This document shows, piece after piece, positions 10,159 through 48,432 of a stretch of 64,000 nucleotides of DNA. This DNA comes from Caldilineales bacterium (GTDB lineage Bacteria > Chloroflexota > Anaerolineae > JAAEKA01), in NCBI GenBank assembly GCA_041391245.1, contig JAWKOJ010000004.1:691-64690 (forward strand), read 5' to 3'. The position numbers and the translations under genes are program-made. Positions within the stretch are counted from its first letter, which is position 1. Each line of letters starts with the position of its first letter. The notes under the pieces were generated by a model. It saw only the letters and a program-made list of their open reading frames with translations. It had not been told where the DNA came from and did no database searches.

Positions 10159-11751
10159 TTGTTTGCCTCATTGATCGACCTGCTTCATCGTCGGGCTGAA
10201 GAACAGCCTGATCAGTCAGCATATGTGTTTCTGGCAGACGGCGAGACCGACGAACATGTTGTTACCTACTCCGAGCTGGATCGGCAAGCGCGTGCCATCG
10301 CAGCTGTCTTGCAGGCGCGACACGCTGCCGGCACACGTGCACTGCTGCTCTACCCGCCGGGGCTGGACTACGTCGCTGCCTTCTATGGCTGCTTGTACGC
10401 TGGTGTGATCGCAGTCCCCGCCTATCCGCCGCGGCCGCGGCGACCCATGCCGCGCATCCAGGCCATCGTTGCCGACTGTCAGCCGTCCGTCGCGTTGACA
10501 GATGCCCGCATCCTGTCTGGCCTCGAGCACCGGCTGGCCGAGCTGCCAGACATGGACGCGCTGGATTGGATTGACACCACGGCCGTTGACTCAGCGTCGG
10601 CGGAGCGGTGGCGGCATGTGCCGGTCGCACCCGACGATCTGTCCTACTTGCAGTACACGTCCGGTTCCACCGCGACGCCCAAGGGCGTCATGGTCAGCCA
10701 CGGCAACCTTGACTTCACCCTGGCCGATCTTGACGCCGGGTCGGATGGCGAGGAGCCTTCCACCATGGTGACGTGGCTGCCGCCCTTCCACGATATGGGG
10801 CTGGTTTTTGGCATCCTGCTGCCGCTCTACGGCGGATATCCCTGCGTCATGATGGCGCCCGTCTCCTTCATCCAGCGGCCGTTGCGCTGGCTGCCGCGCT
10901 GTCCACCTACCGCGGCACCCATAGTGCCGCGCCAACTTCGCCTACGAGCTCTGTTTGGAGAAGATCAGGCCGGAGGAGCGCGCCGCTCTGAACCTGAGTC
11001 GCTGGCGCGTTGCCCTCAACGGCGCAGAGCCGGTGCGCAAGGATACCATGGATCGCTTCGCGGCTGCCTATGCCGCCAGCGGCTTTCGTCTCGATGCCTT
11101 CTCGCCCGGGTACGGGCTGGCCGAGGCGACCCTACAAGTCACCGGAATCCTGGCAGGCAGCGGCCCGACCGATCTGCTCGTGGATCCAGTTGCGTTGGAA
11201 AGGCACGAAGTCGTTCCAGCACTCGCTGGACAGACGGAGGCTCGCAGCCTGGTCGGCTACGAGCCGTCTCCCTTGCAGACGCGCTGGTGCATCGCCGACC
11301 CGGACCAGTTGACTGCCTGTGCTCCCGGCCGTGTCGGCGAGATCTGGGTGGCCGGTCCGGGCGTTGCCCAGGGCTACTGGAATCGCGCCCAGGCTACCCG
11401 CGAGACCTTTCAAGCGCACCTGGCGGACACCGGGGACGGCCCTTACCTGCGCACCGGCGACCTGGGGTTCGTGCACGACGGCAAGCTATACGTGACAGGC
11501 CGCATCAAGGACCTGATCATCGTCCGCGGGCGCAACCACTACCCGCAGGACATCGAGCTGACGGCCGAGCAGAGCCATCCGGCCCTCGAGCCGGGCGGCG
11601 GCGGCGTTCTCGCTGGAACGGAACGGTGAAGAGCGGGTCGCGCTGGTCTGCGAACTGCGGCGCGAACAGCGCAAGACCGACCCACAAGAGGTCATCGACG
11701 CGATCCGCCGGGCCGTGGCAGGGGAACACGAACTGCAGCTCTGCGCCGTAA
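10159..11751 (+). pseudogene. Fatty acyl-AMP ligase (FAAL) loading domain of the downstream PKS; frame broken three times (decay or indel errors)
   Basis: TTG start with AAAGGA upstream. Canonical FAAL sequence ('LQYTSGSTATPKGVMVSHGNL', 'WLPPFHDMGL') runs to '..SFIQRPLRWL' (~10893). Homology then continues in other frames: 'ALSTYRGTHSAAP'; 'NFAYELCLEKIRPEE...GDLGFVHDGKLYVTGRIKDLIIVRGRNHYPQDIE' (ORF 10955..11629); and 'AAFSLERNGEERVALVCELRR...SSGKIQR', in the frame of ORF 11715..18911. Confidence 0.8.
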
Positions 11752-14700
11752 CCCTGACTATGCCGGGCCAGATGCCCAACACCTCCAGCGGCAAGATCCA
11801 GCGCCAGGCTGCGCGCGCCATGTTCCTGGCGGACGAGTTCAAGACCCTGGGCCGGTGGATCGAACCAGAACACGAACCCAACCAGGGCGATCTTTCGCCT
11901 GAGCCTGCTCTGGGTGGCCTTTCGCCTGAGCCTGCTCGGGCCGGTCTCCGACCGAGTCCCGCTGAGATCGCGCCGATTGACCACCAGGATTCCAGAGACT
12001 TCCACGCGATCCGTGACTGGCTGGTGGCCCGCATCGTCGCGCAGGTCAAGGTGCCGCCCAGCCAGATCGATGTGCGCGAGCCACTGGATCGCTACGGTTT
12101 CGACTCGGTGGCGGCTGTCGCGATCACCGGTGAGTTGGGCGACTGGCTTGGACGCACGCTATCCCCCACCCTCTTCTATGAGTTCCCCACCGTGGAAGCC
12201 GTGGCGCGCCACCTGGCGGACCAGGCGGTCGTTGCGCTGCCAGACGACACGCCGCCCGGCGCCTCGTTGATTTCGCCCGGCGGCGGCCAGGAACCTGTCG
12301 CCATCATCGGCATCGGCGTGCGATTCCCCGGCGCGAACGGGCCGCAGGCGTTCTGGGAGCTGTTGCGCGACGGCATCGATGCCATCACCGAGGTGCCGCC
12401 TGACCGTTGGGACGGCCGTGCCTACTACGATCCCAACCCCGCCGCGCCGGGCAAGATGAATACCCGCTGGGGTGGCTTTCTGGAGCAGGTCGACCAATTC
12501 GACGCGGCTTTCTTTGGCATCACGCCGCGCGAGGCCGCGCGCATGGATCCGCAGCAGCGGTTGCTGATGGAGGTTGCCTGGGAAGCGCTGGAAGACGCCG
12601 GACAGGCGCCTGCCCGACTGGCCGGCCAGCGGATCGGCGTCTTTGTCGGCATCTCCAGCTTCGACTACGGCCTGTTGCAACTGGGCGACAACAGCTTGAG
12701 TGACGCCTACGCCGGCACCGGCAGTGCGCTCAGCATCGCTGCCAACCGCCTCTCCTACTTCTTCGACTGGCGTGGACCGAGTATGGCTGTGGACACAGCC
12801 TGCTCCTCGTCGCTGGTCGCGGTTCATCTGGCCTGTCAGAACCTGCGGCTGGGCGAGTGTGACATGGCTCTGGCGGCCGGGGTCAACCTGCTACTGTCGC
12901 CTGCGATGACGGTCAACTTCGCCAAGGCCGGCTTTATGGCGTCCGACGGGCGCTGCAAGCCGTTCGACGCCAGCGCCGACGGCTACGTGCGCAGCGAAGG
13001 CGCCGGGGTTGTCCTGCTCAAGCCGCTGTCGCGGGCGTTGGCCGACGGCGATCCGGTCTACGCCGTTGTGCGCGGCAGCGCGACCAACCAGGACGGCCGC
13101 AGCAACGGCCTGACGGCACCCAATCCCCAGTCCCAGATCGATGTGCTGCGCCGGGCGTACCGCCAGGCAGGCGTCTCTCCGGGCGACGTTCACTACGTGG
13201 AGACCCACGGCACCGGGACGCCGCTGGGTGATCCCATCGAGGCGCAGGCGCTGGGCGCAGTTCTGGGCGCGGGCCGGCCGGCCGGTCAGCCGGCGGCCAT
13301 TGGCTCGGTCAAGAGCAACATCGGCCACCTGGAGGCCGCCGCCGGAATCGCCGGGCTGATCAAGGTCGCGCTGGCGTTGAGACACGGCCAATTGCCGCCC
13401 AGCCTGCACTTCCGCGAGCCTAATCCCCTGATACCCTTCGAGGACCTGGCGCTGCGCGTCCAGCAGACGCTGTCCGACTGGCCGGTGGAGCCGTCCGCGG
13501 CATTGGCCGGCGTCAGCGCCTTTGGCTTCGGCGGCGCCAACGCCCACCTGGTCGTGCAGGGTCCGCCCGCGCGGCGCCCGCGGCTGGGTGCGGCTGCGTC
13601 GCGTGCTCAGGTGATTCCCCTGTCGGCGCGCAGCCCGGAAGCGCTGCGCGATCTGGCGCTGGCCTACCGCGGGTATCTCCATGCCGCGCCGTCTGGCCGC
13701 TTCGGCGACGTTGCCTACACGGCCGGCGTACGTCGCAACCATCACGATCACCGGCTGGCGCTGGTAGCTGACACGGCTGATCAGGCCGTGTCCCGGCTCG
13801 ACGCGTTTCTGGCCGGCCGCAACGCTAAGGGCCTGGAGTTTGGGCGCCGTCCGCGCCAACGGGCTGCACGCGTGGTCTTCGTTTTCTGTGGTCAGGGTTC
13901 GCACTGGTGGGCCATGGGCAGGCAGCTTCTGGCCGAAGAACCGGTCTTTCGCCGGACGGTGGAACGGTGTGACGCCTTGCTGCGCCCGCTGGCCGGCTGG
14001 AGCCTGCTTGCCGAGCTGACGGCGGACGAGGCCGACTCGCGGCTGGACTACACGACCTACGCGCAGCCGGCCATCTTCGCCGTGCAACTGGCGCTTGTCG
14101 AACTGTGGAGCACCTGGGGCATCACGCCCGACGCGGTGGTCGGCCACAGCATGGGCGAGGTCGCCGCAGCAGTGGCCGCCGGCATCCTCGACCTGCCCGA
14201 CGCGCTGCGCATTGTCTATCATCGCGGCCGGCTGATGGAGCAGGCACGCGGGACGGGCAGGCTGGTGGTCGTGGAGCTTAGCCCGGCCGAGGCTGAACTG
14301 GCTGTTGCCGGGCTGGACGACCGCATCGGCGTCGCGGTGGTCAACAGCCCCAATTCTGTGCTGCTGGGCGGCGAGACCGAAACGCTGGAGACGCTGGTCG
14401 GCAGCTTGCAGCGGCGCGGGGTTCATTGCCAGTACCTGTCGCTGGACTTCTCGTCACACAACCCGCAGATGGACCCCTATCTTGCGGAGATGGCCGGGTC
14501 GGTGGGCGAGGTCGTCTTGCGCCCGGCGGCCCTGCCACTGATCTCGACGGTTACCGGCCAGCCTGTCGGCGACACGTTGCTAGACGCGGGCTATTGGGCG
14601 CGCAACATTCGCGAGCCGGTACAGTTTGCTCAGGCGATGGAGTATCTGTTGCAGGACGGGTACGACACCTTCCTGGAGATCGGTCCGCATCCTGTGCTGG

Positions 14701-17700
14701 CGCCGGCCATCATGCAGAACATGCTGCATCACGGCGTCAGGGGAACCGTGTTGCCGTCGCTGCGGCTCAACCGGGACGACCGGAATGTCATGCTGCGCTC
14801 GCTGGCCGCGCTCTACGCAGGTGGCCGCGATCCCGACTGGTCAGCGCTGGCTGAACCGGACGCGCGGCCCGTCAGGTTGCCAACGTATCCCTGGCAGCGC
14901 GAGCGGTACTGGGTTGAAGATAGCCGGCCCGCCGGTCCACAGCCGGCGCCTCGTCCCGTTCCGATCAACGACCGTGCGACCCGACCGGCGGCGGGTGGAG
15001 ACGACAATCTGGTGTACGAGTTGGGGTGGATACCGCGCCAACTTGCCGGCAACGGTTCACAGGTTCCCCCGCGTGACGGAGCGGGCCGCTGGCTGATCTT
15101 TGCCGACCGTGGTGGGGTTGGTCAGGCCGTTGCCGGCCGCCTGCGCATGGAAGGCGACCGCTGTACGCTGGTCTTCGCTGGCGCAGAGTTCGCTCAATCG
15201 GGCGCTGACCACTTCCGGGTCGATCCTGCCAGGCCGAAGCACTTCTCACAGCTTCTGAACGCCGTGTTCGCCGATGACAAGGCGAGTTGGCGCGGCGTGC
15301 TGCACTTCTGGGCCCTGGACGCCGGGTCGCCGGAATCGGATGACAGCGCGCTGGTCGATGCCCAGACCCTCGGGTGCGGCAGCGTGCTGCATCTGGTGCA
15401 GGCGCTGGTTGCCGATCACTCCCCGACCTCCCTGCCGCTCTGGCTGGTGACACGTGGCGTTCAGCCCGTGGACGCCGCGCCGTCCGCCGAGTCGCTGGCG
15501 CAGTCGCCGCTGTGGGGGCTGGGGCGGGTTGTCGCACTGGAACATCCTGAGCTGTGGGGCGGCCTGATCGACCTGGAGCCGGGCGCGATGCGGGTCGACG
15601 CCGAGGATTTCCTCAACGCGATCCGCCACGCCGACGGTGAGGACCAGTTGGTCTTGCGCGGCCGCCGAACGTACGTGGCACGCCTGCTACGCGCCGAAGC
15701 GGTGTCCGGCGAGCACGCGACCGGCCGGATTCGACCCGATGCAACGTACCTCCTCACCGGTGGTCTGGGTGAGTTAGGGCTCGAGGCGGCGCGCTGGCTG
15801 GTGGACCGCGGCGCGACGAGCCTGGCGCTGCTGGGACGCACCCCGTTGACGCCGGGCAGCAAGGCCGCGGCCGCGGTGCGGGCGTTGGAGGAGAAGGGCG
15901 CCTCGGTGGCGACGCTGGCTGCTGACGTGGGCGACCGCGCACAAATGACCGCCGTGTTCGGCCAGATCGCCGCTACTCTGCCGCCGTTGCGTGGTATCGT
16001 CCATGGGGCAGGCGTTCTGGAGAATCGATCGCTGGCTGAACTGAGCCTGGAATCGCTGCACGCGACGATGCGGCCCAAGGTTGCCGGAACCTGGGTGCTG
16101 CAACAACTGGCTGGTGAACTGGACCTGGACTTCTTCCTGCTGTTCTCGTCCATGACGGCGGTCTTGGGCTGGCGCTACGCTGGCCACTACGCCGCGGCCA
16201 ACCATTTTCTCGACACCTTTGCGCACTATCGCCGGGGCGCCGGGCGGCTCGCCACGAGCATCAACTGGGGGCCGTGGGGCGAGGTCGGCATGGTCAGGCG
16301 CGGCCAACTGGAGGAAAGCTTCACGCGCATGGGGATTGCGCCGCTGCCGCCCGCGGCCGGCCTTACCCAGCTGCAGAAGCTAGTGGCCGCTGCGCCTACC
16401 CAGGCTGCGGTCATCGACGCCAACTGGGAACGGTTTGATGCGCTCTACCAGTCGATCCGGCCCACTCGCCTGCTCACGCAGCTTGATCCCTCTCCCGCAA
16501 CAAACCATACTGCTTCTGACCAGACGGTCGTGGAGCGGCTCAGTGCTGCGTCGTTCACCCAGTGGCAGGATATTCTGGCGGTGTTTCTGCGCCGCAAGGT
16601 CGCCCATGTGCTGCGCGTCGACCCGGACCAGGTGCCGGGCGATCTGAGCGTGGTCGAGCTAGGACTGGATTCTATCATGGCGATGGAGGTCACTTGGGCG
16701 TGCAACGAGGAGCTTTCCGTGCGGCTGATGCTGCGGGAGGTGTTCGAACAGCCGTCGCTAACCGCTCTCGCAGGCACGCTGGCCGAGAAGCTGGCCGAGA
16801 TGCCGTCGATGCGTGTCAACGGCAACGGGTCTGCAACACGCTGGGATGACTCTGCCGCGAACCCGCCACCTCATGTCAACGGCATGGCTGGCAGGCCAGC
16901 CGCTGAGATCAAGCCGGCAACGCCACCGGATGCTCTGACATCGCTGGTTCCGCTGCGGGCCAGGGGAACCAGGACGCCGTTGTTTCTGGTTCCCCCGGGA
17001 GCGAGCACCGTGTTGAGCTTTGGCGCGCTGGTGCAGTGTCTGGACGCTGACCAGCCGGTCTATGGGCTGGAGCCGCTGGGGATGGATGGCAGGCACCCGC
17101 CGCAGTGGCGGGTGGAGGATATGGCGTCCCACTACATCAATGAAATCATGACCGTTCAGCCTCGCGGTCCCTACCTCTTGGGCGGGCGCTGTTTCGGCGG
17201 GCTGGTCGCATTGGAGATGGCGCAGCAGTTGCGCGCCCAAGGGCAGCGAGTGGCGATGTTGGCAATCCTCGACACCCTCCAACCGCCCAAGCCCAGCTGG
17301 TTGCGAGATCAGTCGCCAGAGGGCCAGGAGGAGGATTCCAGCCTTGTGAGACGGATGGCAGGTCGCTGGGTGCGCAACACCTATCGGCTATGGAAACGAC
17401 TGACGATCACCGATGCGTTTACGCTGTACACGCTGAGGCAGGTGCTTCCTGAAGACCGTTTCCCCAACATACTGAGCGCGGAGGCGCGCCACATTCGCAA
17501 CACGGCGCGGGCGCACTACCAGGCCAACGAGTTGTACCTGCCGCGACTCTACGAGGGGCGGTTGACGCTCTTTTCCAACGCCGGCCACAACGGCAGCCAT
17601 CAACTCAACTGGGCCGCGCTGACTTCGCAGGCAGTGGACATCCATGTTGTCCCCGGCAACCACCTCACGATGTTCAAAGAACCGTATGTCCGCGTGCTGG

Positions 17701-19092: not shown

Positions 19093-19354
19093 AGTTTTCG
19101 AACGAGTAAGCCAACGCAATAGACGCAGCGATCGAAGTAGTCAACGCGGGGATGGCAACTTCAGTCTTTTCGCTGTTGCCCGTTTGTTGCCTGTGCCACG
19201 GGCGAGTTCTTGCCGGTCAACCCTTCGGCGCCTTTCCTGATCCATGTTTTGCGAATGCAGCCGGATGTTGGGCCGGTTGTGCGTTCAAAGCACTGCCACT
19301 ACCGATGCCTGACTTGGGTCGCGATTGACCGCGACCGTTGTAGAAGACCATCAT

Positions 19355-38337: not shown

Positions 38338-40401
38338 ATGACAGAGCGACCGGCGGCCGGGACTGTTCCCGTGTTAACGCCTTCTCAGTTGACCCAGAAC
38401 GACTCGTTTTACGCCGCAGACGATCTGGTTTTCCGCCAGGCGGCTCCACAAGGGTTTGGAGATCGGCAAAACAGTTGGGCATGGAGTATGTACTGGTGGA
38501 AGGGAAAGCTCTATGTCGGAACCAACCGCGCCTGGCACTGCGCTGAGCATGCCGGTTTGAATTCGGCTTTCCCCCTGTTTATCAAGTATCCACCCAAGGA
38601 TCCCGATGCGCAGTGCACGCCCGATCCCACGGAACTGCCGCTGCGGGCCGAGATCTGGTGCTGGACGCCGGGCAATGACAGTTGGGAGCGGCTCTACCAG
38701 TCGCCTCAGGATGTTGCGATTCCGGGCAAATCGGGCAAGCTGACGGCACGTGAGGTTGGGTATCGCTACATGGCCGAGTTCACCGAGCCGGATGGGACGG
38801 AAGCGCTCTATGTCTCCGGTGTCAACGCCCGTTTCATCTTTCGCCCTGTCCCGTCGCCGCGCATCCTGCGCTCGGTGGACGGGAAAACCTTCGAGCCATT
38901 GCCGCAGGATGCCGGAACTTTCATGGGCACGCTGGACAAGTGCTCTTTCCGTACGCTGGTGGTTTACAAGGATCGATTGTTTGTCCACGTCGGTTCGGTG
39001 CGCGGCGAGGGGATCATCCTCGAATCGACCGATCCCGCGCGCGGCAACGACAGCTTCCACCAGATTAGCCCGAAGGATATGCGCGCCTTTGAAATGGTGG
39101 CCTACAATGGATACCTGTATGTCGGGCTGCGCGACCCGAAGAAAGGATACTCGGTTTGCAAGACCGACGCCACTGGCTCGGCGCCCTACCGATTTACGAC
39201 GGTGGTAGAGCCAGGCGCGTTTGCCTCAAACCCATCGTTTAGCGTGATCAGCATGTTCGTCTTTCGGGATCGGCTGTTTGTCGGCACCGACCGCCCGGGC
39301 GAGATCATTCGTATCAATCCCGACGACACATGGGATCTGGTGTGCGGAGCGCCGCGCGAGACGCCCGATGGATGGAAATACCCGCTCAGCGGGCTGGATA
39401 CAGGCTTCGGCAACTGGCTCAACGCCCATATCTGGCGTATGCAGGAGTACAACGGCCGGCTTTATATCGGCACCTGGAACATGGCGACCGATTTCCGCCG
39501 CGTGGCCGATGCCGATGCCTATCTGCGCCCCCACTACGGCTTCGACCTGTTTGAAACCGCTGACGGCTGGCATTTCACACCCGTCACTACCAGCGGTTTC
39601 GGCGATATCTACTCCAACGGCGTTCGTTCCTTCGCCAGCACCCCGCACGGCCTGTTCGTGGGAACAGCCAACAAGTGGCAGGGGTTGCGTGTGTGGCGGG
39701 GAACTGAGCGTGCTGGCGCATCTGAGTTGGACCGTTCTCCGCGAGCGCCGTTGCGCCTGGAGGCAGAAACGGTCGACAATCGGGTGATTCTTTCGTGGGA
39801 AGACCCGGGTTCAGCGGGCCGCTATCGGGTCTATCGAGCGCAGGTAACTAACATCCGCGACCAGGTGATGTCCAACTCCTTCATGACGCGCATGATGCGG
39901 ATCATGAAGACGATTCTGTTCTTTATGCCCGATCTGTACGTGCCGCCTGTTCCGCAAGAGTTGTGGGTTCCCGGCGCATACGAGGAGATCGCTGAAACCG
40001 ATCAGTGGTTCTGGAGCGATAGCAATGTCTCACCGGGCGCGCGCTACCAGTACCTGGTGCGAGCAGTGGACGCCACAGGGTCGCTTTCGACGGACTCAAA
40101 CATTGTCTCGGCGCCCTATCTTTCCCCCGCGGTTACTTTTGACAGGGTGCTGAAGGAGACTGCCTCACTCCCTGCGGCAACGGAAGAAATGGCGACCGGA
40201 TCGGTCAGCGAGGCAAAGCAGAGGCTTGACGGCGGCGATATGATCGGCGCGCTGGCGCGGCTGGAAGATCTGGCTGGCAAGCTGGCAGACTATCCGGCCG
40301 ATCAACCCGCCCTGGTCGATGACGTGCAGGTGTTGGTTGCAAAGCTTCAGCGCCGAGTTTTGCTGCATCAGGCGGGTGTGTTGGCACACTCGGCGCTGTA
40401 G
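38338..40401 (+). CDS. Conserved hypothetical protein, propeller-like repeats + Fn3-like + helical tail (paralogue A)
   Basis: 687 aa, GGAG RBS, no signal peptide seen. Contains 'PQGFGDRQNSWAWSMYWWKGKLYVGTNRAWHCAE' and recurring '(L/F)(Y/F)(V/I)GT' strands. Also 'IRINPDDTWDLVCGAPRETPDGWKYPLSG' and 'VILSWEDPGSAGRYRVYRA'. No family recognised. Confidence 0.6.
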   Translation: MTERPAAGTVPVLTPSQLTQNDSFYAADDLVFRQAAPQGFGDRQNSWAWSMYWWKGKLYVGTNRAWHCAEHAGLNSAFPLFIKYPPKDPDAQCTPDPTELPLRAEIWCWTPGNDSWERLYQSPQDVAIPGKSGKLTAREVGYRYMAEFTEPDGTEALYVSGVNARFIFRPVPSPRILRSVDGKTFEPLPQDAGTFMGTLDKCSFRTLVVYKDRLFVHVGSVRGEGIILESTDPARGNDSFHQISPKDMRAFEMVAYNGYLYVGLRDPKKGYSVCKTDATGSAPYRFTTVVEPGAFASNPSFSVISMFVFRDRLFVGTDRPGEIIRINPDDTWDLVCGAPRETPDGWKYPLSGLDTGFGNWLNAHIWRMQEYNGRLYIGTWNMATDFRRVADADAYLRPHYGFDLFETADGWHFTPVTTSGFGDIYSNGVRSFASTPHGLFVGTANKWQGLRVWRGTERAGASELDRSPRAPLRLEAETVDNRVILSWEDPGSAGRYRVYRAQVTNIRDQVMSNSFMTRMMRIMKTILFFMPDLYVPPVPQELWVPGAYEEIAETDQWFWSDSNVSPGARYQYLVRAVDATGSLSTDSNIVSAPYLSPAVTFDRVLKETASLPAATEEMATGSVSEAKQRLDGGDMIGALARLEDLAGKLADYPADQPALVDDVQVLVAKLQRRVLLHQAGVLAHSAL

Positions 40402-40418: not shown

Positions 40419-42557
40419 ATGAGTGATACAACAGGTGTGACTATGAAGCGAAGATCCGTGTTGGGTATTCTTGGCGGCGCGCTGATCGCTGCTGTGCTCA
40501 TGATTGTGTTGATGGCGCCGTTGGACGTCCTGGCGGGATATCCACCCGACGCAGACGACTTTGTGTCGATGGCTCCCCAGGGGTTTGGCGATCGCCAGAA
40601 CAGCTGGCCGTGGTCGATGCAATGGTGGAACGGCTATCTCTACGTTGGGACCAATCGGGCATGGCACTGCGCCGAGACAGCATCGTTCCATAACCTGTTT
40701 CCTGGCAGCGTGACCTACCCGCCCGATGATCCCGACATGGAGTGTCCCGAGGATCCGGAGGACATTCCGGCTCAGGCTGAAATCTGGCGTTGGTCCCCGG
40801 GGACCAACGCCTGGCAGCGAGTCTACCAGTCTCCCAACGACGTGCTCCTGGCCAGCGGCAAGTACACATCGCGCGATATCGGCTTCCGCGGCATGACGGT
40901 ATACACCGAAACCAACGGAACCGAGGCGCTTTATGTCACCGGCGTGGCAGCCAAGTTCATCAACTTCGAGGGCGCGCGCGACCTGCCACCGCCGCGCATT
41001 CTGCGCACCACCGATGGACTGAACTGGGAGGCCGTGCCGCAGACGCCGGGCACCGGGTTGGGTGATTTCCCCTGGGCCAGCCTGCGCAATCCATTCGTCG
41101 ACAAGGGGCGTCTCTACGCGATCGGCGGCTTCGCCCAGGGCAGCGGCGTTCTCCTCGAATCGTCTGACCCGGCCGCCGGCGACGATTCTTACGGCGTTGT
41201 CAGCGCCTGGGGGATGCTGGCGTCGGCCGGCGCGCCCTTCAACAACCAGTTGTATGTGTCAACCCAGAGTCTGAGCGGCTACAAGATCTACCGCACCGAC
41301 AACAGCGGAAGCGCGCCGTATTCCTATACGCAGGTGATCAACAACGGCGGCTATCTGAGCAGGCCAAACAACGAGGTACTGTCCATGATGGAGTACAACG
41401 GCCGGCTCTATGCGGGGGGCAACGGCGTAGTCTTTCGTGGTACGCCAGCCGAGCTGATCCGCATTAACCCCGACGACACGTGGGACGTAGTTGTGGGTGA
41501 TCCGCGCGACACGCCGGACGGCTGGAAATACCCTCTCAGTGGCTTCACTTCGGGATTTGGCAACGATTACAACGGGCACATGTGGCGCCTCGAGTCCTAC
41601 GAGGATAACCTGTTTGTTGGAACCTTTGACAGCTCGACGGTCTACAAAGATGATCCGGTGCTGGAACCAATTCTGCGCGACCTGATGGGCTTCGATCTGT
41701 GGCGCTCGCCCGATGGCACCGAGTTCTACTCAATCACAACTCAGGGGTTCGGCGACAAGTTCAACTTCGGCGTTCGATCGATGGAAGCCACACCCGCGGG
41801 ACTCTTCGTCGGCGCGGCGAACTACTACTACGGGCTGCAGATCTGGCGCGCCCCGCAGATGCGGCATGTCTTCATGCCGTCGGTGGTGACAGGGCAGGGC
41901 GCCCGAGCCGCCGGCCAGCCGGCTGCCTATGGGCCGTCCATGAGCGCCAACTGGCGCAGCCACGTGGAAACGGCCACAACGGGCGATGGGGTTGTCGTCT
42001 CATGGGAACCGGCGGCCGGCGCCGCGCGCTACCGCGTCATGCGCTCCTCGTTGATCACCCTGTCTGCGGCGGACTACCCCAGCCTCGACGCTGACATGAC
42101 AGCATGGGGCAAGCCGGTAGAGGTCGGTGAGACGACGGACGCGTACTTCAAAGACAGCACTGCAGCGGCCGGCCGGAAATATGTCTACGTTGTCGAAGCT
42201 CTCGGCAATGCGGGAGAGGTCGTCCGGTCGAACGTGGCGCCTGCGCCTGCCATGAAGCCGCCGGCCACCTGTGCGGCGATTGCCGGCAAGATATCAGACT
42301 ACAGCACGCGCGGCAGGATCGCGGGTGACACGAATGATCTGATCATGTCTGATCTGACCGCTGCGCAGACAAGCGCGGCAGCGGCGCAGTATGCCGACGC
42401 CGCTGCGACGCTGATCGGCCTGCAGCATAAGATCGAACAAGCGGACCCGTCCATGATGACCGAATGGGAAGCCGAGGATCTGGGAACGCTGTTGAGCAGG
42501 TTGGTCCGGCAGCTATCGCTCATCCAGTCCGGCGCACTCCCGGCTGAAGCGCTGTAG
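40419..42557 (+). CDS. Conserved hypothetical protein, membrane-anchored/secreted paralogue B of 38338..40401
   Basis: 712 aa. N-terminal hydrophobic segment 'RRSVLGILGGALIAAVLMIVLMAPL'. Shares 'PQGFGDRQNSWPWSMQWWNGYLYVGTNRAWHCAE', 'IRINPDDTWDVVVGDPRDTPDGWKYPLSG' and 'VVVSWEPAAGAARYRVMRS' with paralogue A. Confidence 0.6.
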   Translation: MSDTTGVTMKRRSVLGILGGALIAAVLMIVLMAPLDVLAGYPPDADDFVSMAPQGFGDRQNSWPWSMQWWNGYLYVGTNRAWHCAETASFHNLFPGSVTYPPDDPDMECPEDPEDIPAQAEIWRWSPGTNAWQRVYQSPNDVLLASGKYTSRDIGFRGMTVYTETNGTEALYVTGVAAKFINFEGARDLPPPRILRTTDGLNWEAVPQTPGTGLGDFPWASLRNPFVDKGRLYAIGGFAQGSGVLLESSDPAAGDDSYGVVSAWGMLASAGAPFNNQLYVSTQSLSGYKIYRTDNSGSAPYSYTQVINNGGYLSRPNNEVLSMMEYNGRLYAGGNGVVFRGTPAELIRINPDDTWDVVVGDPRDTPDGWKYPLSGFTSGFGNDYNGHMWRLESYEDNLFVGTFDSSTVYKDDPVLEPILRDLMGFDLWRSPDGTEFYSITTQGFGDKFNFGVRSMEATPAGLFVGAANYYYGLQIWRAPQMRHVFMPSVVTGQGARAAGQPAAYGPSMSANWRSHVETATTGDGVVVSWEPAAGAARYRVMRSSLITLSAADYPSLDADMTAWGKPVEVGETTDAYFKDSTAAAGRKYVYVVEALGNAGEVVRSNVAPAPAMKPPATCAAIAGKISDYSTRGRIAGDTNDLIMSDLTAAQTSAAAAQYADAAATLIGLQHKIEQADPSMMTEWEAEDLGTLLSRLVRQLSLIQSGALPAEAL

Positions 42558-42574: not shown

Positions 42575-43924
42575 TTGGCACGGTTCCTGCTTGCCTGCTA
42601 TCCCATCGCGGGACATCGCACTCCCAACATCGCAGTCGGCCACGATCTTGCGGCGCGGGGCCACGATGTTGCGATCTACAGCGGCTCCCTGGCGCGCCCG
42701 TCTGTCGAGCAGGCCGGCTTCGAGTTCATTCCCTATGCTGAGGAGGTTGATGAACGCATCACGGACATTCTCCTGGCCAGGGACGAGGCATCCTTCGCTG
42801 GTAGCGTTTCGATGAAGCGGGCCTCGGCCCTGGATTTCAGGAAGACCAGCGCGGTGATGAGCGACTGGTTTCTGTCAACGGTTCCCCAGCAGGTCAGTGA
42901 CCTGCAAGTCGCAATCGACCGGTGGCATCCCGATGTTCTGGTAACCGACATCAGCCTTTTTGGTCCGATCCTCATCCTGAAGGAACTTGTTTCCATACCG
43001 GTCGCCGTCTTTTGTGTGCTCATCGCCTGCCCGCTGCCCGGCCCGGACGCGCCTACCTGGGGCCGCGGGCTGCCGGCGCCTCGCAATCGGCGCACGCGGC
43101 TGCGCTCGACGGTGGAGCGGCTCGCCCAGGATCGGGTGTTGGCGCGATTCCGTGCGGATGCCAACCAACTGAGGGCTGACTATGGGTTGGCGCCGCTGGA
43201 CGAGACAGTGACAGCCTATTCGGGCAAGACTCCGCTGTACATGGTCGCTAGCGCGCCGGAGTTGGACTACAACCGGCAGGACCTGCCGCCGTCGGTGCAA
43301 TACGTTGGCCCATGTCTCTGGCACGGGGCAGGGCAGCAAGACGTTCCGGACTGGCTGGCCGCGCTGGCCGCGCGCCAACGCCCGGTCATCCATGTGACAG
43401 AAGGCACTGTCCACCTGCGCAAGCCGGTGGTGCTGGGCGCCGCTGCCCAGGGGTTGGGCGGCATGAATGCAGATGTCATCATGACTACCGGCCAGCAGCG
43501 CGATCCGGAGTCGCTCGAGCTTGGCCCGCTGGCCGACAACATCCGCGTCGAGAGCTTCGTGTCGCATGGCGCGTTGTTTCCGCATACCGATGTCGTCATC
43601 ACCACCGGCGGCGCGGGCACGGTGTTGACCGCGTTGACATTCGGTGTCCCGTTGATTGTGGTCCCGACCGGATGGGACCTGCCGGAAAGCGCGCAGCGCG
43701 TGGCCGAATGCGGCGCGGGTGTGCGCATCGACCCCAAGAACTGCACCGCGGAGAGCCTGCGGGCAGCCGTAGAACTGTTGTTGAACGACCCGTCCTATCG
43801 CGAGAACGCGCGGCGGGTGGGCGCAGCACTGGCCCGGCAGGGCGGGCCGGCGCGTGCGGCTGAGCTGCTGGAGCGGCTCGCACCAGCGCAGTCTTTGACT
43901 GATATCGATGAGCTTTCGTACTAA
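42575..43924 (+). CDS. GT1-family (MGT/UDP-glycosyltransferase-like) glycosyltransferase
   Basis: 449 aa, TTG start. N-terminus 'FLLACYPIAGHRTPNIAVGHDLAARGHDV'. C-terminal donor-binding region 'FVSHGALFPHTDVVITTGGAGTVLTALTFGVPLIVVPTGWDLPESAQRV'. Confidence 0.8.
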   Translation: MARFLLACYPIAGHRTPNIAVGHDLAARGHDVAIYSGSLARPSVEQAGFEFIPYAEEVDERITDILLARDEASFAGSVSMKRASALDFRKTSAVMSDWFLSTVPQQVSDLQVAIDRWHPDVLVTDISLFGPILILKELVSIPVAVFCVLIACPLPGPDAPTWGRGLPAPRNRRTRLRSTVERLAQDRVLARFRADANQLRADYGLAPLDETVTAYSGKTPLYMVASAPELDYNRQDLPPSVQYVGPCLWHGAGQQDVPDWLAALAARQRPVIHVTEGTVHLRKPVVLGAAAQGLGGMNADVIMTTGQQRDPESLELGPLADNIRVESFVSHGALFPHTDVVITTGGAGTVLTALTFGVPLIVVPTGWDLPESAQRVAECGAGVRIDPKNCTAESLRAAVELLLNDPSYRENARRVGAALARQGGPARAAELLERLAPAQSLTDIDELSY

Positions 43925-43939: not shown

Positions 43940-44968
43940 ATGAAGGTTCTGGTAACAGGTGGGTGCGGGTTCCTCGGATCCCACACCTGTGAGTTTTACG
44001 CCAAGCGGGGAGACCAGGTTGTCTCCTACGACAACATGACCAAGTACGAACTGAAAAGAACCGGCTACGGCAGCGACCGGGCGCGCAACTTCAACTGGGA
44101 CTACCTCTCCAGTCTTGGCGTCGAGATGGTGCGCGGCGATGTGCGCGACCATGAACAGTTGCTTGACAGCGCCGCCGGTGTTGATTTCATTATCCATACC
44201 GCAGCCCAACCGGCAATGACGATCTCCATCGAAGATCCCGACCTGGACTTTTCGACCAATGTGTTAGGAACCTACAACGTGTTGGCAGTCGCCAGACAAC
44301 TGCGGGTGCCTGTGGTCTACTGTTCGTCGATCCACGTCTACGGCAACGCCATCAACGACACATTGGTGGAATCCGACACGCGCTACCTGCGTACACCGGC
44401 CGAGATCGACGAGTCGCATCCACTTCTGGAGGGACTAGTCACACCGCTGCATGCCTCCAAGCGCACCGGCGAGATCTACCTGCAGTCCTTTGTGGACACC
44501 TACAAGATCGAAGCGGCGGCCTTCAGGCTGACTGGATTGTATGGGACGCGGCAGTTCGGCGGCGAAGATCACGGCTGGGTTGCCAACTTTGCTATTCGCT
44601 CCGTACTGGGATGGCCTATCACCCTTTTCGGCACCGGCAAGCAGGTGCGTGACATTCTGTTCGCTCCCGACGCGGTGGCGGCTTTCCACGCATTCTACGA
44701 GCGCCGCAGACCGGGCATCTACAATATCGGCGGCGGCGAGGGCCACTCGATCTCACTGCAGGAGTGTATCGATCTGATCGGTGAGATTCTGGGCCGGGAG
44801 CCTGATGTGACGTTGAAGGACAAGCGGCTGGGCGACCTGTGGTACTTCATCTGTGACATCTCCAAGGCCCGGCGCGAGTTGGGCTGGCAGCCGCTAGTTG
44901 CGCCCAAGGAAGGGGTCAGCAACCTGATCCAGTGGATCAGCGACAACCGTGATTGTTTCCAGCAATGA
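43940..44968 (+). CDS. Extended-SDR NAD-dependent sugar epimerase, CDP-paratose/tyvelose 2-epimerase-like
   Basis: 342 aa. Contains 'MKVLVTGGCGFLGSH', 'GTGKQVRDILF' and 'YNIGGG'. The expected 'SPYGxSK' reads 'TPLHASK' (Tyr position is Leu). The family call is from my recollection of RfbE-type sequences. Confidence 0.7.
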   Translation: MKVLVTGGCGFLGSHTCEFYAKRGDQVVSYDNMTKYELKRTGYGSDRARNFNWDYLSSLGVEMVRGDVRDHEQLLDSAAGVDFIIHTAAQPAMTISIEDPDLDFSTNVLGTYNVLAVARQLRVPVVYCSSIHVYGNAINDTLVESDTRYLRTPAEIDESHPLLEGLVTPLHASKRTGEIYLQSFVDTYKIEAAAFRLTGLYGTRQFGGEDHGWVANFAIRSVLGWPITLFGTGKQVRDILFAPDAVAAFHAFYERRRPGIYNIGGGEGHSISLQECIDLIGEILGREPDVTLKDKRLGDLWYFICDISKARRELGWQPLVAPKEGVSNLIQWISDNRDCFQQ

Positions 44969-44990
44969 GAGGCAGCGCAAGGAGACTGGC

Positions 44991-45731
44991 ATGAAAGCGT
45001 TGGTTTTGGCAGGCGGACGCGGGTCACGGCTCGAAGGGGTCACGGACGACAAGAACAAATGCATGCACGAGTTCCGCGGCCAGCCGCTGATCGAGTACAG
45101 CCTGCAGAATGCCGTTCGAGCCGGAGTGAGCGAGATCATCATCGTGGTCAGCTATCGCGCCGAGTCGATCATCAACCATTTCGGCAACTGCTATGGCGAC
45201 ACGCCCGTCAAGTATGTGATTCAATGGGAGCGCAAAGGGCTGGTGCATGCTATCGAGTGCTGCCAGGACGCGATCGGCGGCTCTGACTTCATGATCTTCC
45301 TGGCCGATGAGATCCTGTTCGAGCCGCGCCACGAGGCCTTGATGGAGCGCTTCCGCGCTCAGGATGTCTTCGCGATCTGCGGTGTCGTGCAGGTAGCGGA
45401 CCTGTCGCAGATCAGCAAGACCTACGCCATCATCTACAGCGACACCGACAACCGCATCTTCCGGTTGATCGAGAAGCCCCGGAATCCCATTAACGCTCTG
45501 ATGGGCACCGGCAACTGTGTGTTCAGAAACGAGATCTTTGACTATATTCAGTACACTCCCATCAATCAGAAGCGCGGCGAGAAAGAGCTGCCCGACCTGA
45601 TCCAGTGTGCGGTCGATGATGGTCGCCTGGTGAAGTACTTCGACATCGGCGGCACCTACATCAACATCAACACGGGCGATGATCTCCAGCGGCTAGAAAG
45701 CTACGAAAACGGCCGCGGGCCGGCCGGCTAG
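44991..45731 (+). CDS. Sugar-phosphate nucleotidyltransferase
   Basis: Start at 'MKALVLAGGRGSRL' (ATG 44991, GGAG upstream), the GGxGxRL signature of the NTP-transferase fold. The ORF-track start at 44949 is rejected. Confidence 0.8.
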   Translation: MKALVLAGGRGSRLEGVTDDKNKCMHEFRGQPLIEYSLQNAVRAGVSEIIIVVSYRAESIINHFGNCYGDTPVKYVIQWERKGLVHAIECCQDAIGGSDFMIFLADEILFEPRHEALMERFRAQDVFAICGVVQVADLSQISKTYAIIYSDTDNRIFRLIEKPRNPINALMGTGNCVFRNEIFDYIQYTPINQKRGEKELPDLIQCAVDDGRLVKYFDIGGTYININTGDDLQRLESYENGRGPAG

Positions 45732-45748
45732 CTGGCTGGTGAGTTGGT

Positions 45749-47452
45749 ATGTGTCGCCATACGATTTGGATGTTGCGCACCGCCGCTCTCGCTATGCTGA
45801 TCGCGGTCACGGCGGTGGTGTCTGCATGCGGCAGTCCGGTTTCGCCTGGCGACCCGGCACCGGTTACGGAGACAGTTGTGGTATCAGTGGATTCGGCTAT
45901 CGTTGAACGTTCTGTCACGCGGCAGCTCTTGGGTCAGGCTGTCTGGTATTCGTGGCAGGCTTATGCCTGGGATAGCTCGATGGGCGCTACCGTGCCTGCC
46001 TTTCTGGACCAATTTGCCGGCCTCGGAGCAGGCATTCTGGGCCACTATCCCGGCGTCGGCGTCATCACGCATGATTTTCACTGGAAGAACATGATTGGTC
46101 CCGTTGATCGGCGAACGGATCCAACACCGCGACAGTCGAGCTTCGATACGCCCCGCTTTCTGGAGTTCGGACCGGACGAGTACGGTCAGATGCTGGAGGA
46201 GTATCGCACCGCCACCGGACTGCCGGTCGATGGCTCGATACAGGTCAACATCGTCAACGGCACGGCGGAGGAAGCGGCCGACTGGGTCGAGTACATGAAC
46301 GCACCGAACGACGGTTCAAATCCGGGCGGCGGCACGGATTGGGCCAGGGTGCGGGCTCAGAACGGTCATCCGCAGCCCTACGGAATCCGTTACTGGGAAC
46401 TGGGCAACGAACCGAATTTCACGGCCTCAAACATCGGCAGCCTGACTGCCGAGGAGTATGTGAGTCGCATACAATCGTTCGTTCCGCGGATGAAACAGCG
46501 CGATCCGTCCATCCAGGTGATGGCCTTCGTCAATCCCTTTGAGATCGGCCAGGCTGCCAAGATAGGCACGGCAACCAGGGATATCGCGGCTGGTAACGGC
46601 TTGACCTGGAGCCAACTTGTGATCCGCGACGCAGGAGAGCTGCTCGACGGCCTGTATTTTCACTGGTACGGCGGCTGGAACGACCTCCGCACCAAATACG
46701 AGTTCCTGATGACCTCTATGAACACCGGGTTGGCCCCGCTGCTGGACCGCATTGCCGGTGATGTAGCCAGGTTCGCGCCCTCCGATGCGGCGCGCGCCCG
46801 GCTTGGCCGGATCATGATTACGGAGTGGAACCCGTACGGCGGCTGGGTCAGGCCGCTGGCAAAAGGCACGGCGCTGCAAGGCGCCATCGCGTATTCGCGT
46901 ACGTTGCACGAGATGGCATCGCGGGATGATGTGGTCGGCGCGATCCATGAGGGGCTCTTCGCGCCCTTCCCTGATCCTGCGATGAGGCCGCGGCTGGCCG
47001 ACATCCGCGAGGGCTATGTCCTCTTCCGGGGTCAGGCGGACCAATCTGCGGTGATGGGTACGGCCGCAGCGGCCGTCGCGCAGCTTTGGTCCGAGGCGTT
47101 TCAACCCAATGTCGTTCAGGTCAAGGCGCAGCCAGGGCCGATGTTCAGCAACGGTGTTCCGGCGCTGGATGTCACGGCGCTGCAGTCAGACGACGGCGCG
47201 GCCCTTAGCGTGATCGTAACCAACGCCGCGAGGTCGCCTGTGTCCTTGCAGGTCAATCTGAGCGGCCATGCTGGCGGCGCAGCCACGCTGCTGACCGTGT
47301 CCGGCAGCAGTCTTTCCGACAACAACTCCTGGAAGGAACCCAACAAGGTGGCGCTGAACCGCAGCACGCTTGCTATCAGTGATCCGGGGGCCATCACAAT
47401 GAACGTTCGCGGGTACTCGGTGCAGGCGTTGCTGATAGGAAGCGCGCGATGA
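45749..47452 (+). CDS. Clan GH-A glycoside hydrolase, probable lipoprotein
   Basis: 567 aa. Lipobox 'AVVSAC'. Acid/base-type 'IRYWELGNEPN' and nucleophile-type 'IMITEWN' motifs, the (beta/alpha)8 retaining glycosidase pattern (GH51/39/79-like). Confidence 0.65.
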   Translation: MCRHTIWMLRTAALAMLIAVTAVVSACGSPVSPGDPAPVTETVVVSVDSAIVERSVTRQLLGQAVWYSWQAYAWDSSMGATVPAFLDQFAGLGAGILGHYPGVGVITHDFHWKNMIGPVDRRTDPTPRQSSFDTPRFLEFGPDEYGQMLEEYRTATGLPVDGSIQVNIVNGTAEEAADWVEYMNAPNDGSNPGGGTDWARVRAQNGHPQPYGIRYWELGNEPNFTASNIGSLTAEEYVSRIQSFVPRMKQRDPSIQVMAFVNPFEIGQAAKIGTATRDIAAGNGLTWSQLVIRDAGELLDGLYFHWYGGWNDLRTKYEFLMTSMNTGLAPLLDRIAGDVARFAPSDAARARLGRIMITEWNPYGGWVRPLAKGTALQGAIAYSRTLHEMASRDDVVGAIHEGLFAPFPDPAMRPRLADIREGYVLFRGQADQSAVMGTAAAAVAQLWSEAFQPNVVQVKAQPGPMFSNGVPALDVTALQSDDGAALSVIVTNAARSPVSLQVNLSGHAGGAATLLTVSGSSLSDNNSWKEPNKVALNRSTLAISDPGAITMNVRGYSVQALLIGSAR

Positions 47453-48432
47453 GTGATTCGGTCACGCTGGACCGCAGCGATCGCGATACCCGGTACGACG
47501 ACCTGCTGGCCGATGTGGACTTCCGCCCCGTGTTCGTCATGGGCGACCATCGCAGCGGCACGACCATTCTGTACAAGATTCTGGGCGCGACCGGTTGTTT
47601 CAACATCGTCACCGTCTATCACATCGCCCGCTTCAATCGGCTGGTCTACGATCATGTGAACCGGTGCGGCGGTGAGTCCAGGGAGGAGTTGAACGACTAT
47701 CTGCGCGCACACGGTATGCAGGATCGGGTTTTCGACCGGATGACGGTAGACGCGGATACGCCGGAGGAATATGGCTTCATCCTGCGCAACGGCGGCGCGC
47801 GCCCGCAGTTGAAGCCGGACAACGTGGCTGACCTGGTGACCCTCTGCAAGAAGCTGCAGCTCACGTCGGGCAACACCATGCCCATCCTTCTCAAGAACCC
47901 GTGGGATTACTTTCGGAATTTTCTGTATGTCAAGCAGGTGTTTCCTGACAGCAAGTTTATCTTCATTCACCGCTACCCGCCGCCGGTGATCAACTCGCAG
48001 ATGACGACCATGCACTCACTGCTCAGCGCGAGAAACGAGTATGTTGCGCTGGTGGCCGATTGGTACGATGCGCTCTTCCGCCAGCCGGCACGCCTGGCGC
48101 TGACCCGCTTCATGTTCTCTTCGCACTTCGACCTCGGGCTGCGTTGGGCTGTGCGCCACGTGCAACGCGCGGTAGATTACTACCTGGAACATTCCCCCTA
48201 TCTTCCCGGCGAGGATTGTGTTACCATACGGTATGAAGACCTGTGCGCTGATCCTGGTGGAACGGTTGACGGCATCATGCAGGCGCTGGAACTGAACGGC
48301 TACGCGGACATCGACTACGCCCGCTATATCAAGGCGCGCGATGTGCCGCTGGCAGACTCGCTGGCGCGCCGCTGGCCCAAGATCAGCCGCTCGCTGAAAC
48401 CTTATCTGGACCGGTTTGGATATGAGGCATAG
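47449..48432 (+). CDS. PAPS-dependent sulfotransferase family protein
   Basis: 327 aa. 5'-PSB loop 'VMGDHRSGTTILYKIL'. Candidate 3'-PB 'IFIHRYPPPVINS'. ATGA overlap with the glycosidase gene. Confidence 0.7.
   Translation: MSDSVTLDRSDRDTRYDDLLADVDFRPVFVMGDHRSGTTILYKILGATGCFNIVTVYHIARFNRLVYDHVNRCGGESREELNDYLRAHGMQDRVFDRMTVDADTPEEYGFILRNGGARPQLKPDNVADLVTLCKKLQLTSGNTMPILLKNPWDYFRNFLYVKQVFPDSKFIFIHRYPPPVINSQMTTMHSLLSARNEYVALVADWYDALFRQPARLALTRFMFSSHFDLGLRWAVRHVQRAVDYYLEHSPYLPGEDCVTIRYEDLCADPGGTVDGIMQALELNGYADIDYARYIKARDVPLADSLARRWPKISRSLKPYLDRFGYEA

Follow-up and report, generated by a model that had tools for sequence, protein, structure and literature searches.

The 64,000-nt stretch of DNA analyzed here (the window), from a Caldilineales bacterium of the Chloroflexota, contains a long block of genes encoding three large polyketide synthases (PKS1 to PKS3), a free acyl carrier protein (ACP), an enzyme of the alkaline phosphatase superfamily (AlkP), and a series of sugar, methyl, and sulfate tailoring enzymes. 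Open reading frame (ORF) listing and Pfam and NCBIfam scans of the block reproduced the order of PKS and tailoring domains and genes that an initial annotation had proposed for positions 10159 to 48432, and all block genes lie on the plus strand. The proposed run of ~38 kb is real, but its downstream limit was set too early: the block continues to ~56-59 kb with two PGAP1-like hydrolases, a DUF362 protein, an MFS_2 transporter, and an exported protein (unk55), and the same-strand run extends up to 59360. Further features beyond the initial annotation are frameshifts, a pair of thioesterases of which one has a Cys nucleophile and the other is dead, the downstream exported proteins with the MFS_2 transporter, a position within the purine operon, and a core cassette. 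Since the gene arrangement is conserved across phyla, it is far beyond chance, and the block is a single co-inherited biosynthetic locus, real and coherent. This conserved, operon-like locus probably spans ~10.2-56 kb of the window (~46 kb). Proteins 100% identical to PKS3 and AlkP of the locus are recorded at NCBI for a "MAG: Caldilineales bacterium," whose contig is 266 kb long.

PKS1 (10159 to 18911, plus strand) has the domain order AMP-binding (fatty acyl-AMP ligase, FAAL), ACP, ketosynthase (KS), acyltransferase (AT), ketoreductase (KR), ACP, thioesterase 1 (TE1), a degenerate ACP-like linker, and TE2. The initial reading of the PKS core, including the recognition of a FAAL-primed module of the Ols/CurM layout (FAAL-ACP-KS-AT-KR-ACP), was thus right with respect to the domains, but the FAAL-PKS and the enoylreductase (ER)-PKS are each one gene that is split by frameshifts, and only one TE retains a nucleophile. 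In the window, PKS1 is broken by two frameshifts (~10893-10934 and ~11574-11715), whereas the orthologue of a relative (locus L001, contig JACKBK010000001.1) is unbroken and 2920 aa long. As a module, PKS1 is of the ordinary cis-AT kind; its AT motif is GHSMG...FSSH, of which FSSH is unusual. The Cys of the TE1 motif GGRCFGG aligns with the nucleophile Ser of PDB entry 7crn, TE2 has a Gly at this position (GGIGFGG; dead), and both residues are kept in L001 and in the related locus L002. Judged by eye from the linker sequence, the TE-x-TE terminus looks like a duplicated ACP-TE unit. The FAAL protein of L002 consists only of FAAL-ACP-TE-TE, an indication that the FAAL unit serves to activate and transfer, with the extension module being optional. 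Acidobacteriota loci (L031, L048) encode a FAAL-ACP-KS-AT-KR-ACP protein that lacks a TE and is followed by a homologue of the alpha/beta hydrolase described below.

PKS2 (19325 to 26399, plus strand; ER-ER-KS-AT-[SDR-like]-KR, where SDR denotes short-chain dehydrogenase/reductase) has no ACP and is likewise one gene, with a frameshift at ~25560 within the Rossmann motif TGGARGIT of the KR; the L001 orthologue is unbroken (2354 aa). Its N terminus contains two NMO/FabK-like ER domains, each of which is above the Pfam cutoff alone. They had been taken for a PfaD-type ER, but their sole NCBIfam match at E ≤ 0.001 is FabK (TIGR03151; 86 and 63 bits) and no PfaD-family model matched, so that they are better described as a tandem FabK-like pair. 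PKS3 (26912 to 32419, plus strand) comprises KS, AT, ACP, dehydratase (DH), and an Sfp/HetI-like phosphopantetheinyl transferase (PPTase); homologues with the same architecture number thousands. PPTase models of NCBIfam matched as well, among them HetI weakly. For the KS-AT regions of both proteins, the best model is that of PfaA (TIGR02813), with 854 bits for PKS2 and 684 bits for PKS3. The proposed affinity of the pair to polyunsaturated fatty acid (PUFA) synthases was correct to this extent, but since both scores are below the model cutoff of 1010.1, PKS2 and PKS3 are PfaA-like rather than members of the family. The Cys-His-His triad is kept in all three KS domains of the locus, and none of them is therefore a chain-length factor. 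The GHSxG Ser of the AT domains is preserved as well (GHSYG...CAFH in PKS2 and GHSTG...RAYH in PKS3). In PKS3, a single PP-binding match was found, the DH matched PS-DH and not FabA, and no KR was detected with Pfam between the ACP and the DH. Together, the two ERs, the KR, and the DH provide a full reduction capacity, which in combination with the FAAL indicates a lipid-like chain.

The free ACP (32542 to 32847, plus strand; PP-binding match) has its likely start Met at 32542 within an ORF that opens at 32428, and the Ser of its LGFQSLD motif is invariant over five orthologues. Its stop codon overlaps the start of the AlkP gene as ATGA, and the same overlap of the two genes exists in L001, L002, L059, and L060. 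AlkP (32844 to 34454, plus strand; Pfam Phosphodiest PF01663, 131 bits) has no signal peptide at its N terminus and is a predicted cytoplasmic protein. Foldseek with the AlphaFold2 (AF2) model (pLDDT 90.5) gave a Xanthomonas nucleotide pyrophosphatase/phosphodiesterase (NPP) as best match (TM 0.68), followed by ENPP1/3/5/6 and the phosphonoacetate hydrolase PhnA. Residues D11, T50, D212/D215, H219, D274, H275, and H433 are invariant in 35 homologues, and by alignment and predicted structure AlkP is an NPP-fold enzyme with preserved two-metal site and Thr nucleophile. Its identity is at least 51% over the 120 best matches. By analogy with the chemistry of NPPs, candidate substrates are the phosphopantetheine phosphodiester of ACP, 3'-phosphoadenosine 5'-phosphosulfate (PAPS) or adenosine 5'-phosphosulfate (APS), acyl-AMP, and NDP-sugars. 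The next gene encodes an alpha/beta hydrolase (abH; 34477 to 35343, plus strand, Pfam) with the Ser nucleophile motif GHSMG, whose PDB sequence matches are esterases, epoxide hydrolases, and dehalogenases; GHSxG is kept in 31 of 33 orthologue matches. abH is a candidate off-loading thioesterase or acyltransferase, and an abH homologue after the TE-less FAAL-PKS of the Acidobacteriota loci fits an off-loading role. The classical SDR1 (35340 to 36224, plus strand; Pfam adh_short), weakly similar to KdsR-type ketoreductases, is a further core gene.

Two adjacent genes had been singled out initially as unknown paralogues, and this was borne out: ParA (38338 to 40401, plus strand) and ParB (40419 to 42557, plus strand) are 39% identical, and ParA has no Pfam or NCBIfam match. 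According to its AF2 model (pLDDT 89.8), ParA consists of a beta-propeller, an Ig/FN3-like domain, and a C-terminal helical bundle. It has no signal peptide, whereas ParB has an N-terminal signal or anchor segment. No significant PDB sequence match was obtained for ParA, and Foldseek returned generic propellers only (query-normalized TM ≤ 0.36), i.e., the fold gives no function. The possibility that Par is a divergent arylsulfotransferase (ASST) propeller was rejected, with a profile-profile probability of 0.2%. A hydrophobic N terminus is present in 21 of 38 Par homologues, ParB included, and is absent from the ParA-type copies. The family comprises 742 representative clusters at E ≤ 1e-30; in many representatives of 950-1700 aa, the Par region begins at about residue 300 and is preceded by an extra N-terminal domain that is missing from the window copies.

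The remaining tailoring, sugar, sulfate, and export genes are all encoded on the plus strand and were assigned by Pfam. The SAM-dependent methyltransferase (MT; 36279 to 37316), whose best NCBIfam model is 2-ketoarginine C-methyltransferase (133 bits, below cutoff), is followed by the classical SDR2 (37431 to 38297; also NCBIfam). In most loci showing the MT (L001-L004, L007, L008, L013, L022, L046, L059, L066, and L087), it adjoins an SDR, and by these neighborhoods MT and SDR2 travel together as an accessory pair. Downstream of the Par genes lie a glycosyltransferase of the GT1 family (GT1; 42575 to 43924; macrolide-GT/EryCIII-like, TIGR01426 MGT 168 bits) and an NDP-sugar epimerase/dehydratase-type SDR (Epim; 43940 to 44968; Pfam Epimerase) with orthologues in L003 (89%) and L066 (73%). 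The latter had been called CDP-paratose-epimerase-like; an SDR it is, but its best NCBIfam models are dTDP-glucose 4,6-dehydratase and GalE, all below cutoff. The AglF-/RmlA-like sugar-1-phosphate nucleotidyltransferase (NTPtr; 44949 to 45731; NTP_transferase) has orthologues in L003, L006, and L066, and the clan GH-A/GH51-like glycosidase (GH; 45749 to 47452; ASD1_dom, ArfA 70 bits), with a lipoprotein-type signal (N terminus ...VSACGSP), has orthologues in L003 and L066. A PAPS-type sulfotransferase (ST; 47449 to 48432; Sulfotransfer_3) follows, with orthologues in 7 of 29 Par-anchored loci (see below) and in L059 and L060. The block then continues with the PGAP1-like alpha/beta hydrolase PGAP1a (48416 to 50446; orthologues in L003, L006, and L008), a DUF362 protein that combines a TAT signal with a FlgD-Ig-like domain (50412 to 51767; orthologues in L003, L008, L024, L049, L071, and L073), an MFS_2 (GPH-type) transporter (51807 to 53285; 291 bits) that is by family a candidate exporter or flippase, and a second PGAP1-like hydrolase (53278 to 54969; likely start Met at 53278) whose homologues adjoin Par in L011, L014, L025, L103, L138, and L139. 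The probable last conserved gene of the block is unk55 (55015 to 56106), which encodes an exported protein that has a signal peptide, no Pfam match, and homologues of 33-41% identity in L006, L012, L014, and L029. Signal peptides are thus predicted on ParB, GH, PGAP1a, DUF362 (TAT), and unk55.

A scan for Par in one genome per GTDB species revealed 56 loci, distributed over Chloroflexota (Caldilineae, Anaerolineae, Ardenticatenales, Chloroflexales, and Herpetosiphonaceae), Acidobacteriota (Bryobacteraceae, Solibacter, Terriglobia, and Vicinamibacterales), Thermodesulfobacteriota/"Deltaproteobacteria," and Alphaproteobacteria (Stellaceae and Methylocapsa), in addition to one 3-kb contig binned as Nitrospira. 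In tblastn searches with the window proteins, the recurring cassette was PKS3-ACP-AlkP-abH-SDR1-(MT-SDR2)-GT1(1-2)-Par(1-3)-(ST)...MFS_2, with FAAL-PKS1 located either upstream or downstream. Among the 29 loci of at least 20 kb, on which all counts are based, 22 contain any PKS gene, 22 GT1, 19 abH, 18 PKS3, 17 each ACP, AlkP, and SDR1, 14 MFS_2, and 7 ST. L003 and the window are colinear over the stretch PKS3 to MFS_2, and L001 and L002 have PKS1 through ParB in common with the window. The more distant L059 and L060 (PKS3 homologues of 48% and 46% identity), for which independent gene calls were used, retain PKS2-PKS3-ACP-AlkP-abH; L059 also retains SDR, MT, SDR, GT, and ST, and L060 retains ST, with reductases in the GT position. 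These are three NAD-dependent epimerase/NAD_binding_4-type reductases (859, 332, and 613 aa; L060 19383 to 24783) that follow abH in the place that SDR, MT, and GT occupy in the window, which hints at an aldehyde- or alcohol-forming branch of the family. In L059, an IS630-type transposase (DDE_3 + HTH_Tnp_IS630; 23939 to 24800) lies right after ST and interrupts the cluster ahead of a 796-aa gene. The series GT-Epim-NTPtr-Par-GH is found again in L066 (48-73% identity), and the sugar-nucleotide genes are thus cluster members as well. PKS, GT, sugar-nucleotide, and sulfotransferase genes hence recur together in distant relatives, as expected from the initial proposal of one locus, and the alternative that they are never linked in relatives is refuted.

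A bias from anchoring on Par was avoided by anchoring on AlkP in metagenome contigs. An ACP homologue lies immediately upstream of AlkP in 64 of 71 loci, and the 27 loci with at least 6 kb of downstream sequence contain abH (26/27), SDR1 (23/27), and MFS_2 (17/27). Of the AlkP-anchored loci, 30 represent, for the most part within a single clade from peat soil, a type II variant without large PKSs, GT, or Par; GT1 is present in 9 of 13 loci that are not of type II. The gene order of the variant (e.g., L120 1 to 18900; same clade L092-L130; related genome loci L024 and L099) is two ASST genes, a second AlkP-family gene, a bifunctional ATP-sulfurylase/APS-kinase, a lone KS, an ACP, a PPTase fused to the "free" ACP, AlkP, abH, MFS_2, SDR1, and a PHP-domain protein, with a flavin halogenase-like gene nearby. 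No canonical PAPS sulfotransferase was found in the L120-type variant, though the variant encodes a PAPS synthase. Genes for sulfate activation or transfer recur around the invariant core, and ASST-like genes also adjoin Par in L011, L019, and L020. As the variant lacks the large PKSs, the invariant core of the family consists of PPTase, ACP, NPP-like enzyme, Ser hydrolase, and SDR, often with MFS_2, and to judge from gene content this cassette, not the large PKSs, is the most conserved part of the family.

In its genomic setting, the block is flanked by the two halves of a minus-strand purine operon (Pfam), with purS-purL (59372 to 62564) on one side and purQ (8973 to 9926) on the other, so that purL and purQ are held apart by ~49 kb of opposite-strand genes. 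Beyond purQ follow purC, a GNAT gene, purE, purF, purD, a YhgA-type transposase gene, purM, and purN; the putative transposase (Transposase_31, E 2e-58; 2918 to 3910, minus strand) between purD and purM represents a second break in the operon. The GC content of the window is ~64%, and the block and the pur genes have the same GC and GC3. A recent horizontal transfer is ruled out by this host-like composition, and an insertion, if one occurred, must be old. Scans for tRNAs and Rfam families in the window gave no match, and there is hence no tRNA-linked integration site; pur genes were absent beside the cluster within the fetched flanks of relatives. The last two plus-strand genes before purL, encoding an unknown protein (56695 to 57408) and an SdrD_B-repeat surface protein (57363 to 59360), are probably outside the conserved cluster because they have no homologues in any related locus. 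Within the block, the "tiny gaps or ATGA overlaps" of the initial annotation were confirmed by ATGA overlaps at 32844, 35340, and 47449 and by gaps of 54 nt or less at the majority of junctions, but wider gaps separate MT and SDR2 (114 nt), PKS1 and PKS2 (413 nt), and PKS2 and PKS3 (512 nt). The latter spacer (26400 to 26911) is noncoding, with a GC content of 50% and no ORF; it is not repeated elsewhere in the window and matched none of the fetched loci. It is unique to the window, the closest relative L001 having overlapping PKS2 and PKS3 genes instead, and could be an internal promoter region or an insertion remnant.

Overall, the gene content moderately favors the interpretation that the locus makes an exported long-chain lipid of the polyketide/fatty acid type that is glycosylated and, in this organism, probably also sulfated. 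PKS2 and PKS3 would act jointly and iteratively, using the in-cis and/or the free ACP, to assemble malonyl units into a long acyl chain that is largely reduced, and the PPTase domain would self-prime the carrier proteins. The abH hydrolase and the NPP-fold enzyme, whose gene is translationally coupled to that of the free ACP, may process or off-load the ACP-bound intermediate, while SDR1 may reduce a leftover keto group. A free fatty acid would then be reactivated by the FAAL and passed on to the first ACP of PKS1, whose KS-AT-KR could add one C2 unit to yield a 3-hydroxyacyl-ACP. The Cys-type TE1 would release this chain or hand it to an acceptor, in a logic akin to that of Ols and FadD32/Pks13. 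GT1 would attach a sugar, whose NDP-activated form the nucleotidyltransferase and the epimerase/dehydratase would provide, and MT, SDR2, and the PAPS-type sulfotransferase would decorate the product. Finally, MFS_2 might carry the product out of the cytoplasm, where the exported ParB, GH, PGAP1-like hydrolases, and DUF362 could act on it or bind it.

Several points weigh against this proposal. The sequence in which the PKSs act, the molecule glycosylated by the GT, and the one sulfated by the ST are inferred, and the extender unit of PKS1 is uncertain because of its unusual FSSH motif. The NPP-like enzyme and Par, i.e., the two most conserved non-PKS proteins, are without an assigned pathway step. 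GT, Par, and ST are not universal, the type II variant having none of them within 10 kb of the anchor, and the term "glycolipid" consequently applies to a subfamily rather than to the family as a whole. If the three PKS frameshifts are real, the copy in the window is inactive. Moreover, the organism and every relative found, including all 56 Par-anchored genome loci, are metagenome-assembled genomes (MAGs). With respect to the NPP-fold enzyme, it is conceivable, albeit rather unlikely, that it cleaves the phosphodiester of ACP phosphopantetheine or transfers a phosphoryl or sulfuryl group from a nucleotide donor such as PAPS, which would be an undescribed carrier-protein chemistry of the core cassette. 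If the enzyme indeed acts on an ACP intermediate in this manner, the products would constitute a new class of sulfated or phosphorylated lipids with a wide distribution among uncultured bacteria of soil, peat, and sludge, and the Par propellers would be a new family of extracytoplasmic lipid-handling proteins.

The same chemistry might instead serve a secreted specialized metabolite, e.g., a biosurfactant or an antibiotic-like polyketide glycoside, rather than an envelope lipid. The affiliation of GT1 with the macrolide-GT family and the presence of an MFS exporter would fit such a product, and so would the tailoring, which varies strongly among relatives (MT/SDR2, one or two GTs, ST, and the halogenase-like gene in variants), as well as a patchy cross-phylum spread that is typical of horizontally spread biosynthetic gene clusters. 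However, the core is as strongly conserved as the AlkP identities indicate, the codon composition is fully host-like, several cell surface proteins are co-conserved, and Pfam scans of the block showed neither a resistance nor a regulator gene. A secreted specialized metabolite is therefore regarded as a minor alternative with a limited chance of being correct.

Less probable still is a hydrocarbon pathway of the Ols/CurM type, in which the 3-hydroxyacyl-ACP would be sulfonated in trans and released by TE or abH with decarboxylative elimination to give a terminal alkene, the sugar genes serving something else. The first six domains of PKS1 are the same as in Ols and a PAPS-type ST is encoded in the block; in L060, the ST gene is even situated directly between PKS3 and ACP-AlkP-abH, and the peat variant unites KS, ACPs, SDR, abH, PAPS synthase, and a PHP protein that is a possible PAP phosphatase. 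But the window ST shows no sequence similarity to the CurM/Ols sulfotransferase in the PDB at E ≤ 1, with weak matches to Teg12/Teg14 only, and the candidate assignment as a CurM/Ols-like activating sulfotransferase was rejected for this reason. Its gene is located 30 kb from PKS1 and is missing in many relatives that keep the GT, the Cys-type TE1 with its dead copy is not a CurM-type TE, and GT1, which is the most conserved tailoring gene, needs a hydroxylated acceptor.

It was also considered whether the copy in the window is the remnant of a decaying pseudogene cluster with real PKS frameshifts, two in the FAAL region and one in the KR of PKS2. This is very improbable, since the 64 kb contain a fourth apparent 1-nt frameshift of the same kind in the housekeeping gene purL (~60061-60090; LDLKAAG|DLIYAIGET), and the frameshifts in the PKS genes are accordingly read as probable assembly errors. 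The genes have neither in-frame stops nor deletions elsewhere, their catalytic motifs are all preserved, and the L001 orthologues are intact. A practical consequence of assembly indels is that ORF-based annotation of this contig will split genes. Finally, the idea that PKS, sugar, and sulfate genes are separate loci placed side by side by chance deserves hardly any credence, as the presence of Epim, NTPtr, and GH in few relatives only (L003, L066, and partly L006) and the 413- and 512-nt gaps that could house separate promoters stand against a linkage that recurs in at least four phyla with varying gene order and the same partners.

In soil, peat, and activated sludge, Chloroflexota and Acidobacteriota rank with the most abundant uncultured bacteria, and little is known of their envelope lipids and specialized metabolites. 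The locus delineates a gene-cluster family that is conserved across phyla and has a recognizable core, which is a target for heterologous expression and environmental lipidomics. It also draws attention to two large protein families, the ACP-coupled NPP-fold enzyme and the Par beta-propellers, in a context that constrains their possible roles. If the product proves to be an abundant sulfated glycolipid, orphan environmental lipids could be explained.

With respect to known systems, the cluster has in common with PUFA synthases (PfaABCD/E) the PfaA-like KS-AT, an FMN-type ER of the trans-acting style, a dedicated PPTase, and presumably the iterative synthesis of a lipid. In contrast to them, it has no KS-chain-length factor pair, both KS domains being active, one ACP instead of a tandem array, no FabA-type DH pair, and an ER that is duplicated and fused; the scores of 854 and 684 bits are below the curated PfaA cutoff. 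The enediyne PKSE layout is KS-AT-ACP-KR-DH-PPTase, and KS-AT-ACP-DH-PPTase was detected here. No annotation of the enediyne cassette (E3/E4/E5 and E10 thioesterase) was present among the neighboring genes, and two ERs are encoded where an enediyne locus should have none.

The heterocyst glycolipid (Hgl) pathway of Nostocales combines HglE/PfaA-like PKSs with the PPTase HetI and the glycosyltransferase HglT. The likeness comprises the PfaA-like KS-AT of probably iterative action, a PPTase of the Sfp/HetI type, and, as proposed for the cluster, a long and mostly reduced chain with hydroxyl or keto groups that is glycosylated and exported to the envelope. On the other hand, the window lacks an HglB-type thioester reductase domain: NAD_binding_4 was not found on window proteins except for a secondary match of the NDP-sugar epimerase, whereas L060 does carry NAD_binding_4 proteins. 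The PPTase of the cluster is fused to a PKS and its tandem ERs are fused to a KS; a FAAL-PKS module, the NPP-like enzyme, the Par propellers, and a sulfotransferase are added. The GT is of the GT1/MGT type and not HglT-like, MFS_2 is present while no DevBCA-HgdD-type exporter was seen in the cluster, and the hosts are not cyanobacteria.

The terminal module of Ols and CurM is FAAL-ACP-KS-AT-KR-ACP-ST-TE. Up to the second ACP, the order of PKS1 is identical, and the cluster likewise encodes a sulfotransferase of the PAPS type. The latter is, however, a discrete and dissimilar protein instead of a fused domain, PKS1 ends in the Cys-TE and the dead TE instead of a CurM-type TE, and the module is part of a far larger cluster of the glycolipid type.

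Among mycobacterial systems, the FadD32/Pks13 pair resembles what is proposed for the cluster, with a FAAL that passes a long acid on and a receiving PKS whose TE or alpha/beta hydrolase at the terminus may acylate a sugar. The sulfolipid-1 locus comprises the FAAL FadD23, Pks2, the sulfotransferase Stf0, the acyltransferases PapA/Chp1, and MmpL8 (PMC3318749); a sulfated glycolipid exported by a dedicated transporter is the common theme, proposed only for the cluster. The KS-AT of PKS1 matches the Pks13 model NF040607 with 1031.9 bits (cutoff 2100) and the Pks2 model with 865 bits (cutoff 2400), i.e., far below membership. PKS1 has an integrated KR, PapA-type acyltransferases and MmpL are absent from the cluster, and its chain-building PKSs are PfaA-like and not Mas-like.

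None of the 20 secondary lipid synthase types A-T described by Shulse and Allen in 2011 (PMC3098273) has the combination of ER-ER-KS-AT-KR and KS-AT-ACP-DH-PPTase. The initial statement that the cluster matches no characterized pathway was thus supported by these types and by the literature searched, in which no characterized equivalent was found; as this search covered open-access papers, the designation "uncharacterized" is provisional. A product in the form of the 1,2-diol glycosides of Thermomicrobium and Roseiflexus was dropped as unsupported, there being no cultured diol producer among the 56 Par-anchored loci. By analogy, the cluster is like a blend of the "secondary lipid" synthases for heterocyst glycolipids and PUFAs, the FAAL modules of Ols or FadD32/Pks13, and the mycobacterial sulfoglycolipid loci. 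It is a variant of the known PfaA/HglE-type lipid PKSs, and its novelty lies in the ACP-coupled NPP-fold cassette, the Par family, and a restriction so far to uncultured bacteria.

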